This document shows, piece by piece, positions 2,973-5,665 of a DNA stretch of 5,665 bases. The notes under the pieces are model-generated. The model did not search any database. It saw only the letters and a program-made list of their open reading frames with translations, and had not been told where the DNA came from. The stretch covers positions 1-5,665 of the IMG/VR virus record IMGVR_UViG_3300045988_004551, one strand, 5' to 3'. Origin of the DNA: a virus. Every line of letters begins with the position of its first letter. Within the stretch, counting starts at the first letter, position 1. A program made the position numbers and the translations under genes.

Positions 2973-3992
2973 ATGGGATGCAATAAACCGCTAATCCGGT
3001 TTTATGTACCTCATGACAGAGAAGCGAGTGGGCGAGTGTACTCACTCGCTTCTTTTAACGAGATACACAAGACCAAAATGACATACGAAGACCTGATGTA
3101 TCGCAAAGATGTAATGATGATACCATGCGGACAATGCACAGGATGCAAACTACGCAAACGCAAAGACTGGGCCACACGAATGGAGCTGGAAGCATACAGC
3201 CACGAAAAGGAAAGCATCTGGTTTATCACACTAACCTATGATGACGACCATGTACCAACACAAGACACAGAAACAGGGGAAATCTTCAAGGGAGGCATAA
3301 ACGTCTGGAAAGGCACCTCAGAGCGTCCCAGAACGGTGCAAACTTTAAGCGTGGAGGATGTCCAACTATTCATGAAAAGGCTTAGAAAGGCCGTCAGCGG
3401 GCCTCTCAGGTACTTTCTAGCCGGAGAGTATGGAGACAACACCTCAAGACCGCACTATCACATGATACTATACGGATGGAATCCAGACGACTTAAAACCA
3501 ATTCACAAACTGTCAAGATTTGGACACTACACGAGCAATAAGCTGGTCAGAATCTGGGGACAAGGCACGGTCGATATAGCTCAAGCAACACCAGAAACAT
3601 ATAACTATGTAGCTGGATACGTGACCAAGAAACTATACGGAAACGACAAGGACAGGTATAAAAAAATGGGACTCATACCTCCATTCTGCGTGATGAGCCG
3701 AAAGCCAGGACTCGGGGACGAATGGTTTCAAAAGAATCAAGAAAGGCTATGGCAGCTTGGATACATCCAGCTGACAAACGGCAAGAGAGCAGCCATTCCA
3801 GAATATTATTGGCGAAAGCTGGAAGCTGAAAATCCTGAAAAAGCGTGGAGAATCAAGCGGTATCGACAAGAAAAAGCCATTGCGTCCCTAATCGAAAGAA
3901 ACATGGAAACTGACAAACAGTATGCCGAACAACTGGCCGATAAAGAAGCAGTCATGAAGAAGAAGATGTCCAAAGCAAAGGGCGTTTTTTAG
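2973..3992 (+). CDS. VP4: Replication initiation protein VP4 (HUH rolling-circle endonuclease, phiX174 gpA-like), 339 aa
   Basis: ATG 2973 abuts the VP2 stop (TAAATG), with AGGAGG at 2954-2959. RCR motifs are readable in the translation: motif 1 FITLTY (3222-3239), HUH motif 2 HYHMILY (3453-3473), and two-tyrosine motif 3 YVAGYVTKK (3606-3632). A Cys cluster PCGQCTGC lies at 3123-3146. Confidence 0.93.
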   Translation: MGCNKPLIRFYVPHDREASGRVYSLASFNEIHKTKMTYEDLMYRKDVMMIPCGQCTGCKLRKRKDWATRMELEAYSHEKESIWFITLTYDDDHVPTQDTETGEIFKGGINVWKGTSERPRTVQTLSVEDVQLFMKRLRKAVSGPLRYFLAGEYGDNTSRPHYHMILYGWNPDDLKPIHKLSRFGHYTSNKLVRIWGQGTVDIAQATPETYNYVAGYVTKKLYGNDKDRYKKMGLIPPFCVMSRKPGLGDEWFQKNQERLWQLGYIQLTNGKRAAIPEYYWRKLEAENPEKAWRIKRYRQEKAIASLIERNMETDKQYAEQLADKEAVMKKKMSKAKGVF

Positions 3993-4001
3993 CTCTGGTG
4001 T

Positions 4002-4059
4002 CACTCAGCCAAGTAACTATCAAGTATATATACTTGGCTGAGTGTTTTTTAGTTTTTTT
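4002..4059 (+). terminator. Strong stem-loop followed by T runs, immediately after VP4. Rho-independent terminator of the main transcription unit; a possible additional origin role is hypothetical.
   Basis: CACTCAGCCAAGTA (4002-4015) pairs perfectly (14 bp) with TACTTGGCTGAGTG (4031-4044). The loop is 15 nt (ACTATCAAGTATATA). It is followed by T6 (4045-4050) and T7 (4053-4059). Confidence 0.8.
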
Positions 4060-4063
4060 ATCA

Positions 4064-4104
4064 GCGCGCGCGCACGCGCACGTAATCGCGCACGTACACG
4101 CACG
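4064..4104. repeat. Alternating purine-pyrimidine CG/CA tract (Z-DNA-prone) containing a direct repeat of CGCGCACGTA
   Basis: GCGCGCGCGCACGCGCACGTA (4064-4084) is 21 nt of perfect Pu/Py alternation. CGCGCACGTACACGCACG (4087-4104) is 18 nt more. CGCGCACGTA occurs at 4075-4084 and 4087-4096. The tract is flanked by T-rich and AT-rich DNA. Confidence 0.85.
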
Positions 4105-4150
4105 ATTTTTATTATATTATTATTTACTTGTTGTAGTCGTAGTAGTAGGG
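4105..4150. repeat. Near-pure AT tract with TTA microrepeats, followed by GTA trinucleotide repeats. Candidate easily melted element.
   Basis: 4105-4132 (ATTTTTATTATATTATTATTTACTTGTT) has only 2 G/C in 28 nt. 4133-4147 reads GTA GTC GTA GTA GTA. Confidence 0.7.
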
Positions 4151-4199
4151 AGTGTTGAAATGTTGAATACTATGAATTTTTATCCGTGGAACGATATTT

Positions 4200-4208
4200 T
4201 GTGGTTAA
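4200..4208 (-). promoter_or_regulatory. DnaA-box-like 9-mer (TTAACCACA on the - strand, 1 mismatch to TTATCCACA)
   Basis: The + strand reads TGTGGTTAA, preceded by TTT. It is part of a repeated TTTTGTGG-WWAA unit. Confidence 0.45.
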
Positions 4209-4226
4209 TTTTGATGTTGATACTTT

Positions 4227-4235
4227 TGTGGATAA
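4227..4235 (-). promoter_or_regulatory. Perfect consensus DnaA box (TTATCCACA on the - strand)
   Basis: The + strand reads TGTGGATAA, the exact reverse complement of TTATCCACA. Confidence 0.6.
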
Positions 4236-4261
4236 CTTGTTGAATTGTTGAAAGTGTAGCA

Positions 4262-4270
4262 ATATGCACA
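4262..4270 (+). promoter_or_regulatory. DnaA-box-like 9-mer (ATATGCACA, 1 mismatch to TTATNCACA) overlapping the left arm of a hairpin
   Basis: Read directly. Its orientation is opposite to the other three boxes. Positions 4265-4270 lie in the hairpin stem 4265-4284. Confidence 0.35.
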
Positions 4271-4284
4271 AAACCATTTGTGCA
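4265..4284. other. Perfect 8-bp hairpin TGCACAAA-ACCA-TTTGTGCA
   Basis: 4265-4272 is the exact reverse complement of 4277-4284, with a 4-nt loop ACCA. Confidence 0.8.
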
Positions 4285-4290
4285 ACTTTT

Positions 4291-4299
4291 TGTGGAAAA
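4291..4299 (-). promoter_or_regulatory. DnaA-box-like 9-mer (TTTTCCACA on the - strand; fits the relaxed TTWTNCACA)
   Basis: The + strand reads TGTGGAAAA, preceded by TTTT, and lies immediately upstream of the triple TGTTGAAAG repeat. Confidence 0.45.
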
Positions 4300-4337
4300 C
4301 CTGTTGAAAGTGTTGAAAGTGTTGAAAATGTAATTAG

Positions 4338-4410
4338 AGGCAGCTCGGCAGCTGGCCGAAAGGTTACGTCATGCTCTTCGTACGGCGCACCGCGCCTAGC
4401 GCATGACCTT
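4338..4410. other. GC-rich multi-hairpin island in an otherwise AT-rich spacer. Candidate ssDNA structural element (complementary-strand origin?) or small structured RNA.
   Basis: Hairpin 1 is CAGCT-CGGC-AGCTG (4341-4354). A GAAA tetraloop mini-stem is GCC-GAAA-GGT (4355-4364). An outer 7-bp stem GTCATGC (4368-4374) / GCATGAC (4401-4407) encloses the inner hairpin GGCGC-ACC-GCGCC (4384-4396) and the CGTACG palindrome (4379-4384). Confidence 0.6.
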
Positions 4411-4430
4411 CAATGCAAAATTCTTCTAAC

Positions 4431-4475
4431 TTTTTTTAAAAAAATCTTGACTTTTTTCTAAAAATATGGTACAAT
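4431..4475 (+). promoter_or_regulatory. Promoter P1: T7A7 UP-like tract, -35 TTGACT, 17-nt spacer, extended -10 TGgTACAAT
   Basis: TTGACT is at 4447-4452 and TACAAT at 4470-4475, with an exact 17-nt spacer. TG lies at 4467-4468. TTTTTTTAAAAAAA is at 4431-4444. The first downstream gene starts at 4504. Confidence 0.75.
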
Positions 4476-4503
4476 AAAATCACAGAAAGGAAAGGTGAAC
4501 ACC

Positions 4504-4689
4504 ATGCTGCACTTCTATGAAATCCGAAAACTTGACAAGAACGGTGAACCACACATCGTCCGAAAGCTCACAACAGAGCCAAAGATAGCAAAACAGGAGT
4601 TAAAAAAATACGCAGAAGAGAATCCGGGAGTTTATTCACTGTATCAAATTCACCAAGTAGCAGCATATTTTACGATAAAGGAGGATTGA
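4504..4689 (+). CDS. Hypothetical small protein, 61 aa (orphan; first gene after promoter P1)
   Basis: ATG 4504 is preceded by AAAGGTGA (4491-4498) at good spacing; the track's GTG 4495 lies inside the SD and is unlikely. The product is MLHFYEIRKLDKNGEPHIVRKLTTEPKIAKQELKKYAEENPGVYSLYQIHQVAAYFTIKED. I recognise no family. Confidence 0.6.
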   Translation: MLHFYEIRKLDKNGEPHIVRKLTTEPKIAKQELKKYAEENPGVYSLYQIHQVAAYFTIKED

Positions 4690-4714
4690 AAAAAAACCTC
4701 TTTTTTGATATAAT
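4686..4714 (+). promoter_or_regulatory. Promoter P2: -35 TTGAAA, 17-nt spacer, extended -10 TGaTATAAT
   Basis: TTGAAA is at 4686-4691 and overlaps the TGA stop (4687-4689) of the 61-aa ORF. TATAAT is at 4709-4714, TG at 4706-4707, and the spacer is exactly 17 nt. Confidence 0.7.
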
Positions 4715-4814
4715 GAAAATAATCAAACAGCACGAAAGTGTTCTTCTCAAATCCATTTATACAAAAATAACTTTACGAAAGAGGTGAATTGCCCTGACTC
4801 TCCAAGAAATCAAA

Positions 4815-5335: not shown

Positions 5336-5572
5336 ATGAACGTATACGGAATTTTCGACAACTGCGTGATGGGCTATATCACCATCTTTACCGAACGTGA
5401 CGACAAAGTGGCCGAACGCAATTTCAAAATCGCACTGACCGATGAACGAAACATCATGAGCAAGACACCGAGTGATTATCGGCTGGTACGACTGGCAAAG
5501 TTTGACGAGAAAACGGGCCTGTTTAAGAACGAAAAGGAGAACATCTTCGATGGCGTATCGCTCAGTAAGTAA
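5336..5572 (+). CDS. Conserved gokushovirus-type small nonstructural protein (ORF5/VP5-like), 78 aa
   Basis: ATG 5336 is preceded by AAGGAGA (5324-5330); the track's earlier start at 5276 is an upstream extension. The product MNVYGIFDN..Y...F..R.D..AERNF........(N).....PSDYRLVRLAKFDEKTGLF fits the remembered pattern (Y.I.D....F..PF....D..A.R.F ... P.DY.L..LG.FD..TG) of the small ORF5/VP5 family of Microviridae. The last 6 nt (AAGTAA) lie in the terminal repeat. The 3' end overlaps the VP3 start (5550) by 23 nt. Confidence 0.7.
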   Translation: MNVYGIFDNCVMGYITIFTERDDKVAERNFKIALTDERNIMSKTPSDYRLVRLAKFDEKTGLFKNEKENIFDGVSLSK

Positions 5573-5665
5573 CTTCAGGGAAACCGCAACAGCAAAGGCC
5601 ACCGAAGCCGGAGAGACCGTGAGGCGCACATACCTCTGGGAACTCAACGAGAAAGGCGAAAAGGT
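5550..5665 (+). CDS. VP3: Internal scaffolding protein VP3, 5' portion (the same gene as 1..463; continues past the window end / around the circle)
   Basis: ATG 5550 has AAGGAGA at 5534-5540. The in-frame stop TGA at 5457-5459 bounds the frame upstream. The reading MAYRSVSNFRETATAKATEAGETVRRTYLWELNEKGEKV joins seamlessly to the ORF at the window start. Confidence 0.75.
   Translation, partial: MAYRSVSNFRETATAKATEAGETVRRTYLWELNEKGEK
5567..5665. repeat. Terminal redundancy, right copy (identical to 1-99)
   Basis: 99/99 identity with the window start. Confidence 0.95.

Follow-up and report, generated by a model that had tools for sequence, protein, structure and literature searches.

What reads a dense array of short direct repeats in a phage that already encodes its own replication initiator? 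The question is raised by the window analysed here, a stretch of 5,665 nucleotides (IMG/VR record IMGVR_UViG_3300045988_004551) that holds the genome of a gokushovirus, a circular molecule with a unit length of 5566 nt as evident from a 99-nt terminal redundancy, in which bases 1-99 recur at 5567-5665 as assembly overlap. The repeats, copies of the 7-mer TGTTGAA, are located in a non-coding stretch of about 500 nt that extends from the gene of the replication protein VP4 to a strong promoter at 4447-4475. We consider it probable, with an estimated probability of about 0.68, that the segment at 4105-4328 (about 220 bp), which we refer to as the cassette, is a mimic of the chromosomal origin (oriC) of the host with variant boxes, which would recruit the initiator DnaA to the duplex replicative form (RF) of the phage. 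We hold with greater confidence one part of this reading, namely that the TGTTGAA repeats are very likely DnaA boxes of a host type (TTTTCAACA) found in Ruminococcus/Oscillospiraceae-type Clostridia. The cassette appears to copy the basal unwinding system (BUS) of oriC, since it combines ten same-orientation sites with the placement of their proximal pair at 4 bp from a run of trinucleotides and an AT-rich tract. Its elements are listed from the outer to the inner end:

4105-4127, AT-rich tract (96% A+T) in the place of a DNA-unwinding element, outer end of the cassette
4128-4148, + strand, trinucleotide run TTG TTG TAG TCG TAG TAG TAG, resembling DnaA-trios
4149-4152, G-rich spacer GGAG, 4 nt between the trios and box A1
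4153-4169, + strand, proximal box pair A with an 8-nt step: A1 TGTTGAAAT at 4153-4161, A2 TGTTGAATA at 4161-4169
4200-4208, + strand, extra DnaA-like box TGTGGTTAA in the A-B spacer, one mismatch
4215-4254, + strand, distal cluster B with steps of 12, 11 and 8: B1 TGTTGATAC at 4215, B2 TGTGGATAA at 4227, B3 TGTTGAATT at 4238, B4 TGTTGAAAG at 4246
4265-4284, 8-bp palindrome TGCACAAA-ACCA-TTTGTGCA in the B-C spacer (z = -2.6)
4291-4328, + strand, distal cluster C with steps of 11, 9 and 9, inner end of the cassette: C1 TGTGGAAAA at 4291, C2 and C3 TGTTGAAAG at 4302 and 4311, C4 TGTTGAAAA at 4320

Architecture and conservation of the repeat array

The seven exact copies of TGTTGAA start at 4153, 4161, 4238, 4246, 4302, 4311 and 4320, all on the + strand and with no further copy on either strand elsewhere in the window, and they are joined by a TGTTGAT at 4215. 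An initial sequence-only reading of this DNA had reported these counts together with the 8-nt pairs and the 9-nt triple formed by the copies, all of which our strand scan reproduces. The enrichment emphasized in that reading is real, with none of 200 shuffled windows reaching seven copies (mean 1.10, maximum 4), although its expectation of well under one copy was slightly generous. Equally real are the DnaA-like boxes it had noted, of which TGTGGATAA at 4227 matches the DnaA box TTATCCACA perfectly and TGTGGAAAA at 4291 and TGTGGTTAA at 4200 contain one mismatch each. The box at 4200-4208 is particular to the window and does not define a conserved slot, as relatives carry none at this position. 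The two larger units at 4224-4256 and 4288-4321 have precisely the quoted sequences and do share 21 nt at 90% identity, but their interpretation as duplicates of one box-plus-iteron module has to be abandoned in light of 96 relatives, where they constitute two distinct and separately conserved clusters with steps of 12-11-8 and 11-9-9, respectively.

No other DNA of the genome is conserved as widely as the non-coding region, and for some gokushoviruses in GenBank, recovered from the faeces of humans, pigs, monkeys and dogs, the match to the window is confined to 4214-4328, with about 86% identity. Each of the first 16 relatives retains 4-9 copies of TGTTGAA in a single orientation, and the set grew to 96 distinct gokushovirus cassettes when IMG/VR was scanned with the trinucleotide block next to the repeats. 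All 659 copies in these cassettes are found on the same strand, with position 8 being exclusively A or T. Their alignment defines ten fixed slots (A1-A2, B1-B4 and C1-C4) occupied by sites of the class TGTKGAWA. A G at position 4 is found at A1 in 61, at B2 in 28, at C2 in 15 and at C4 in 6 of the 96 cassettes; at five other slots, including B1, B3 and B4, this position is a T in at least 95. The A1 sites with a G include TGTGGAAAA (28 cassettes, one mismatch to TTATCCACA) and AGTGGAAAA (13 cassettes, two mismatches), B2 is TGTTGAAAA in 55 and TGTGGAWAA in 27 of the 96 relatives, and C1 is either TGTGGAAAA (33/96) or TGTTGAAAA (36/96) in most of them. Since TGTGGAWAA and TGTTGAAAA interchange at A1, B2, C1 and C2, the TGTTGAA repeats and the DnaA-like boxes together form a single class of sites. 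The sequence-only reading was thus right in assigning them to each other, but not in treating them as the two parts of a composite. Across phage cassettes, T-type boxes outnumber G-type boxes by 1117 to 191, and a G majority is found in none of 140 cassettes. The conservation of box columns (0.91) compared to spacers (0.65-0.68) points to selective constraint on the boxes and is consistent with the idea that the repeats are functional protein-binding sites. Within the B-C spacer, whose columns are conserved at 0.68, relatives contain other small palindromes, and the match of a terminator scan at 4265-4284 was discarded since it corresponds to such a palindrome whose sequence is not conserved.

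The segment at 4105-4152 with its AT tract and TAG run, which turned out to be the most informative neighbour of the repeats, had been left out of the sequence-only reading, whose span began at 4153. Its linkage to the boxes does not originate from our sampling, as it is also found with a box-only pattern that is blind to trios. Among the 112 microvirus-size contigs retrieved in this way, the strict trio pattern is present in 90, and about 13 others contain a trio run next to a degenerate A1; eight are chance matches that have no array, and in one array (L272) the trios are disrupted. Trios, 4-nt spacer and AT-rich tract are thus present with about 103 of 104 arrays, and the gap between the trios and A1 measures 4 nt in 68 of the 88 cassettes scored. 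In L272, the boxes are retained and the trio run is broken up by unrelated sequence. In another genome (L306), the trio run and the proximal box pair are duplicated in tandem.

The cassette is also mobile. It follows VP4 in gene orientation in 76 of the 96 genomes and is inverted in 19, of which 15 belong to a lineage with a VP4 that is 33-40% identical, where it resides between VP2 and VP4; altogether, about 20% of relatives have it in inverted orientation or at another position. A comparison of L012 and L013 reveals a clean inversion of a 207-bp core, approximately equivalent to 4113-4328 of the window, with unchanged flanks, from which we have deduced the boundaries of the cassette at the AT tract and C4. 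This mobility is difficult to reconcile with the proposed tie of the array to the downstream promoter. The sequence of the boxes is invariant across relatives whose VP4 shares between 33 and 95% identity with that of the window. One gokushovirus (L270, MG945385.1; VP1 48% and VP4 35% identical) contains neither the cassette nor any TAG run, whereas more distant lineages (L014, VP1 41%) do carry the cassette. Such a patchy distribution marks it as an accessory open to gain and loss. Single-stranded cassette DNA shows no more folding than its shuffled counterparts (-12.5 kcal/mol compared to a mean of -11.2, z = -0.53). Its inversion and movement as a unit, its lack of structure as a single strand and its absence from L270 indicate a self-contained accessory element that would act on duplex DNA and be read by a conserved host factor.

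The corresponding module in bacterial origins

In order, strand and orientation of its elements, the cassette resembles the BUS described for the incC region of B. subtilis and its homologues (Richardson 2016/2019; Pelliciari 2021; PMC8287927, PMC6669920). The published rules comprise at least three consecutive NAN trios on one strand, with 3'-GAT-5' being preferred, a GC-rich gap of about 4 bp between trios and box, a box with at most two mismatches to TTATCCACA or to a species-specific box at a distance of 0-16 bp from the trios, and a second box with up to four mismatches (PMC8287927). In C. difficile, the trio sequence is 5'-CACCTACTACTATTACTACTATGA, the other strand of which reads TAG TAG TAA TAG TAG TAG GTG (PMC7561715). 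In the window, the TAG triplets nearest to the boxes (4140-4148), which follow TTG, TTG, TAG and TCG, provide the three consecutive trios, 5'-TAG-3' being equivalent to the DnaA-trio consensus 3'-GAT-5'. They are separated from the tandem box pair by a G-rich gap of 4 nt, and on their far side they are flanked by the AT-rich region at 4105-4127, a tract that is found at the same place in relatives and also beside the trios in bacterial dnaA-dnaN spacers. Trios and boxes are placed in fixed orientation on one strand (5'-TAG trios ... TGTGGATAA-3'), an arrangement that recurs in no fewer than 51 bacterial dnaN-oriC-dnaA loci and in the description of the C. difficile trio. The cassette further shares with incC the presence of additional distal box clusters, and pair A would by analogy be the counterpart of DnaA-box#7/#6. 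It differs from known BUS regions by its location on a single-stranded DNA phage of 5.6 kb that encodes a rolling-circle Rep of its own, instead of between dnaA and dnaN, by boxes that are mostly TGTTGAA instead of TGTGGA and that all point in one direction, by a phage-specific (A)CTTGTTG block preceding the trios (4126-4133 in the window), which hosts do not have beside theirs, and by its mobility and invertibility within the phage genome. Since microviruses are textbook rolling-circle replicons that depend on the HUH Rep they encode, one would not expect them to carry a host-origin unwinding module in complete form, and our literature search has revealed no paper that ties Microviridae or gokushoviruses to DnaA boxes or trios.

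The relationship to bacterial origins is underlined by a scan of 185,579 bacterial and archaeal species, each represented by one genome, with the pattern GTAGTAGTAG-N3-6-TGTKGAA-N1-3-GTTGAA. We found 104 matching stretches, compared to about 0.4 expected by chance according to our own estimate. A single match (L191) is a microvirus contig; the remainder are chromosomal contigs, mostly from Ruminococcus, Oscillospiraceae, Acutalibacteraceae and metagenome-assembled genomes of unclassified Clostridia, with others from Selenomonas, Limosilactobacillus, Prochlorococcus and further taxa. In at least 51 matches, an open reading frame (ORF) for DnaA is located on one side and an ORF of about 375 residues on the other, with the Pfam families DNA_pol3_beta detected in L155 and L146 and Bac_DnaA and Bac_DnaA_C in L146. 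These flanking genes place the pattern into the dnaA-dnaN origin region in its published orientation. The bacterial modules consist of the trio run, a GGGC or GGGG spacer and a box pair TGTKGAAaTGTTGAA that is identical to the pair of the phage, and in Ruminococcus/Oscillospiraceae-type loci, copies of TGTTGAA at steps of 8-12 nt crowd the remainder of the spacer, as in the phage. Between the core of the cassette and genuine dnaA-dnaN spacers, identity reaches 91% over 34-43 nt. A search for long-range homology to one particular host origin returned only motif-scale matches of 19-43 nt, and the donor can thus not be named.

The box type in these bacteria goes along with residues of DnaA itself. 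Six residues of domain IV contact bases, namely R399, P423, D433, H434, T435 and H439 (PMC7561715, citing Fujikawa 2003). The bacterial loci are grouped below by the identity of the residues at positions 435 and 439, with boxes counted in the dnaA-dnaN spacer minus the matched pair:

37 loci, DnaA with GGRDH-S-TIV-Y (S435, Y439): TGTTGAW 472, TGTGGAW 66
9 loci, DnaA with GGRDH-T-TV(L/I/M)-H (T435, H439): TGTTGAW 0, TGTGGAW 17
4 loci, DnaA with S435 and H439: TGTTGAW 5, TGTGGAW 7

In S435/Y439 spacers, TGTTGAW reaches a density of 28 per kb, whereas coding DNA contains about 0.5 per kb and T435/H439 hosts have none, and the same trend is observed upstream of dnaA. The box next to the trios is TGTTGAA in 28 of the 37 S435/Y439 hosts, and P423A is an additional change in L146, the only DnaA of this type to be aligned. 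TGTTGAA sites therefore display the hallmarks of DnaA boxes, by clustering at oriC next to dnaA and by a sequence that varies with domain IV residues, the latter being an association only. It looks as if loci of the L136-L239 type (such as L146, L155 and L170) employed an undescribed lineage-specific DnaA-box code with TGTTGAA (TTTTCAACA) in place of TGTGGA, which accompanies changes in three base-contact residues (P423A, T435S and H439Y); the literature that we searched does not discuss TGTTGAA or TTTCAACA as DnaA box. The ratio of T-type to G-type boxes in the phage cassettes (1117:191) resembles that of S435/Y439 hosts. The cassette offers a sequence-based host prediction for an abundant group of gut phages with hardly any known hosts, pointing to Clostridia of the Ruminococcus/Oscillospiraceae type whose DnaA carries S435/Y439. 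So far, microviruses have only rarely been linked to Gram-positive bacteria (PMC9239249). Origin finders based on TTATCCACA would overlook boxes of the TGTTGAA type.

Predicted function and alternative explanations

From these similarities we infer the binding of DnaA, the unwinding of the duplex and the use that is made of the opening, and with them the effect that the recruitment would have. After conversion of the incoming single strand into the duplex RF, host DnaA-ATP would occupy the distal clusters and the proximal pair, from where a DnaA oligomer would extend from A1 over GGAG onto the TAG strand and open the duplex at 4105-4148. The assignment of DnaA as opener is modelled on incC of B. 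subtilis, whose two DnaA-box subregions would be mirrored by pair A and clusters B and C. In incC, an orientation-fixed proximal pair and a distal subregion are both needed, and reversal of box#6/7 inactivates the region (PMC6669920). The opening would most likely be entered by the helicase-loading machinery of the host, so that the RF would be replicated in theta mode or maintained, a use to which we assign slightly less than an even chance. As a side-effect, DnaA could be titrated away from the host origin at high copy number of the RF. Whether a large clade of gut gokushoviruses has in this way captured a miniature host origin, which would turn its RF into a DnaA-controlled mini-chromosome, is a distinctly more tentative proposition that we regard as rather doubtful. 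If true, a single-stranded DNA phage replicating by rolling circle would have gained a second replication mode, theta-type and coupled to the cell cycle, and a plasmid-like carrier state, and the same data would imply a re-coded box TTTTCAACA that is read by a DnaA with P423A/T435S/H439Y. A duplex form under the control of DnaA could also help to account for the long persistence of gut microviruses. Host DnaA boxes beside an AT-rich region on a mobile replicon are familiar from P1 oriR, F, pSC101, RK2 and R6K. These replicons rely on their own initiator and their own iterons, with DnaA in an accessory role, and they are not described to contain BUS-type trios abutting a box, whereas the phage has no initiator besides the HUH-type VP4 and the boxes are its sole repeats.

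Several observations weigh against the recruitment of DnaA by an oriC mimic. The microvirus already replicates by a VP4-driven rolling-circle mechanism, which leaves a second initiation system without explanation, and the absence of the cassette from L270 implies that it is dispensable for the family. A1 and A2 each contain three mismatches to the E. coli consensus TTATCCACA, compared to the maximum of two that the BUS rule permits in the better box; both are one mismatch away from the lineage box TTTTCAACA at a spacer of 4 bp, and the window thus conforms to the box rule only if the lineage-specific box is accepted. The 8-nt step causes adjacent 9-mers to overlap by one base, an uncommon arrangement for a pair of DnaA domain IV modules; the same step is found in bacterial origins. 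The host loci were selected by a pattern that demands GTTGAA in box A2, and the hosts with S435/Y439 may form one clade, whose association with the box type could reflect a single evolutionary event. Finally, DnaA of M. tuberculosis likewise contains Y439 but uses TTGTCCACA, so that Y439 alone cannot account for a switch of the box.

Among the alternatives, the one closest to the recruitment of DnaA by an oriC mimic is that the boxes serve solely as a sponge, which would titrate DnaA and stop initiation on the host chromosome, with no opening of the phage duplex and no origin function. This explanation, which we find unlikely, would account for ten same-orientation boxes per genome, for the occurrence of the cassette in either orientation and at two genome positions, and for an L270 that does without it, as expected of an accessory host-takeover device. 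Dense boxes whose extra copies can lower free DnaA are known from datA of E. coli and from the inc regions and DnaA-box clusters of B. subtilis, and incA, incB and incC reportedly owe their names to the inhibition of the host by additional plasmid-borne copies of these DnaA-box regions. Yet a sponge requires boxes alone; titration loci have need of neither trios nor an unwinding element, whereas the phage cassette retains both, in about 103 of 104 arrays together with the 4-nt spacer, and its proximal pair keeps the orientation demanded by incC of B. subtilis. It appears still less probable that opening by DnaA assists rolling-circle initiation by exposing a nick site in or beside (A)CTTGTTG at 4126-4133 to the HUH endonuclease VP4. 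In support, HUH enzymes cleave single strands, (A)ACTTGTTGTAG is phage-specific and missing next to host trios, and the origin of phiX174 is said to be cut within CAACTTG^ATA. This six-base resemblance is weak, however, the window contains TACTTG instead of AACTTG, and L270 has a VP4 yet no CTTGTTGTAG anywhere. Moreover, 20% of relatives carry the cassette in inverted orientation between strand-specific flanks that have not moved, and in those genomes a nick site inside it would switch the packaged strand. We have thus downgraded (A)ACTTG as VP4 nick site by analogy to phiX174, given that it is missing in L270, imperfect in the window and located within the invertible core.

The remaining explanations, to which we assign very low probabilities, invoke proteins other than DnaA or a role on the single strand. 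The candidate binders in the sequence-only reading included VP4, a small phage protein and a host regulator, of which the last has gained support. Iterons of a phage Rep, as in geminiviruses, circoviruses and rolling-circle plasmids of the pT181/pC194 type, are likewise short same-orientation repeats in the non-coding part of a small circular Rep-encoding genome, and in 76 of 96 phages the array is found in the main non-coding region straight after VP4. Such iterons normally co-vary with their Rep, but the phage boxes stay the same over the entire range of VP4 identities (33-95%) and recur in the same arrangement in bacterial dnaA-dnaN spacers that are free of phage genes; a Pfam search of the small ORFs did not detect a DNA-binding family, and L270 combines VP4 with the absence of the repeats. 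About equally improbable is the proposal of degenerate 0A boxes (TGTCGAA), by which Spo0A~P of a sporulating host would keep the phage silent, as it does in phi29 and Nf. In its favour, Clostridia are the predicted hosts, and in phage Nf a pair of TGTtGAA sequences separated by 3 bp, known as imperfect 0A boxes, is footprinted by B. subtilis Spo0A, a master regulator of the host that is active at oriC as well and is exploited by the phage; 0A boxes are also known at replication origins, where Spo0A~P blocks initiation (PMC2731898 and its ref. 6). Still, TGTCGAA with its consensus C occurs neither in the window nor in any of the 96 cassettes, the T at position 4 being fixed at 95/96 in five slots, and the steps of 8, 12, 11, 8, 11, 9 and 9 never equal the 10-bp step of the tandem boxes in Nf and phi29. 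The BUS model assigns the place next to the trios, which in 28 of 37 S435/Y439 hosts is taken by TGTTGAA, to DnaA, with whose recognition-helix residues the box type varies. Spacing, position and association with DnaA thus favour DnaA over Spo0A, which may still make a second use of the sites; of the earlier suggestions, the link to oriC of Bacillus proved a good lead. The least probable explanation places the cassette on the viral strand as a DnaA-dependent primosome assembly site, equivalent to the A site of the ABC-primosome, for minus-strand synthesis. DnaA boxes in hairpin stems can prime the conversion of single-stranded to duplex DNA, and a few relatives (L010, L011) contain inverted pairs of TGTGGAAAA and TTTTCCACA. 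Against this role, the cassette does not form a stable hairpin (z = -0.53 relative to shuffles), its ten boxes are unable to pair with each other because all share one orientation, and its inversion in 19 of 96 relatives would place the complement on the coding-sense strand.

Neighbouring genes and further elements

All genes of the phage are encoded on the + strand. Besides the repeat array, the following features were assigned in the window:

53-463, + strand, scaffold protein (Pfam Chlamy_scaf)
460-2124, + strand, VP1
about 2166-2972, + strand, VP2
2973-3992, + strand, VP4/Rep, HUH-type (Pfam REP_ORF2-G2P)
4447-4475, strong promoter TTGACT-17-TGgTACAAT
5336-5572, + strand, small ORF, homologue of Phage_ORF5 (Pfam)

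Strong Shine-Dalgarno sites and promoters of the sigma-A type (TTGACT-17-TGgTACAAT) suggest a host from the Firmicutes. Directly after the VP4 stop codon, at 4002-4050, a 17-bp hairpin CACTCAGCCAAGTA...ACTTGGCTGAGTG followed by TTTTTT (z = -7.9) looks like an intrinsic terminator; it was not flagged by an automatic terminator scan. The adjacent tract at 4064-4104 alternates between purines and pyrimidines (CGCGCAC-type), is retained by many relatives and forms a perfect GC palindrome in L004; in L013, where the core cassette is inverted, it keeps gene orientation. It could be prone to adopt Z-DNA or a cruciform or act as strand-specific signal. On the other side of the invertible core, a conserved hairpin GTCATGC...GCATGAC surrounds CGTACGGCGCACCGCG at 4366-4408, which relatives either retain or replace by another hairpin with a common CGCACGGC, making it a candidate for the VP4 nick site, the minus-strand origin or another element that is specific to one strand. 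An Rfam scan of 3950-4800 gave just two chance matches to microRNAs (E about 0.8).

In PLSDB, no plasmid matches the cassette. Microviruses with an all-canonical TGTGGATAA version of the module were also sought, and the pattern TAGTAGTAG-N3-6-TGTGGATAA matched only large contigs or single chance boxes. Several IMG/VR contigs of 9-30 kb (L264, L258, L253, L248, L259 and L256), which are presumably double-stranded DNA viral, combine TAG trios and a G-rich gap with arrays of canonical TGTGGATAA, and origin-type unwinding modules may thus be more widespread on phages than recognised. Downstream of a 64-residue ORF of the window, a second near-consensus promoter TTGAAA-17-TGATATAAT is located at 4686-4714, which would drive the remaining small genes.

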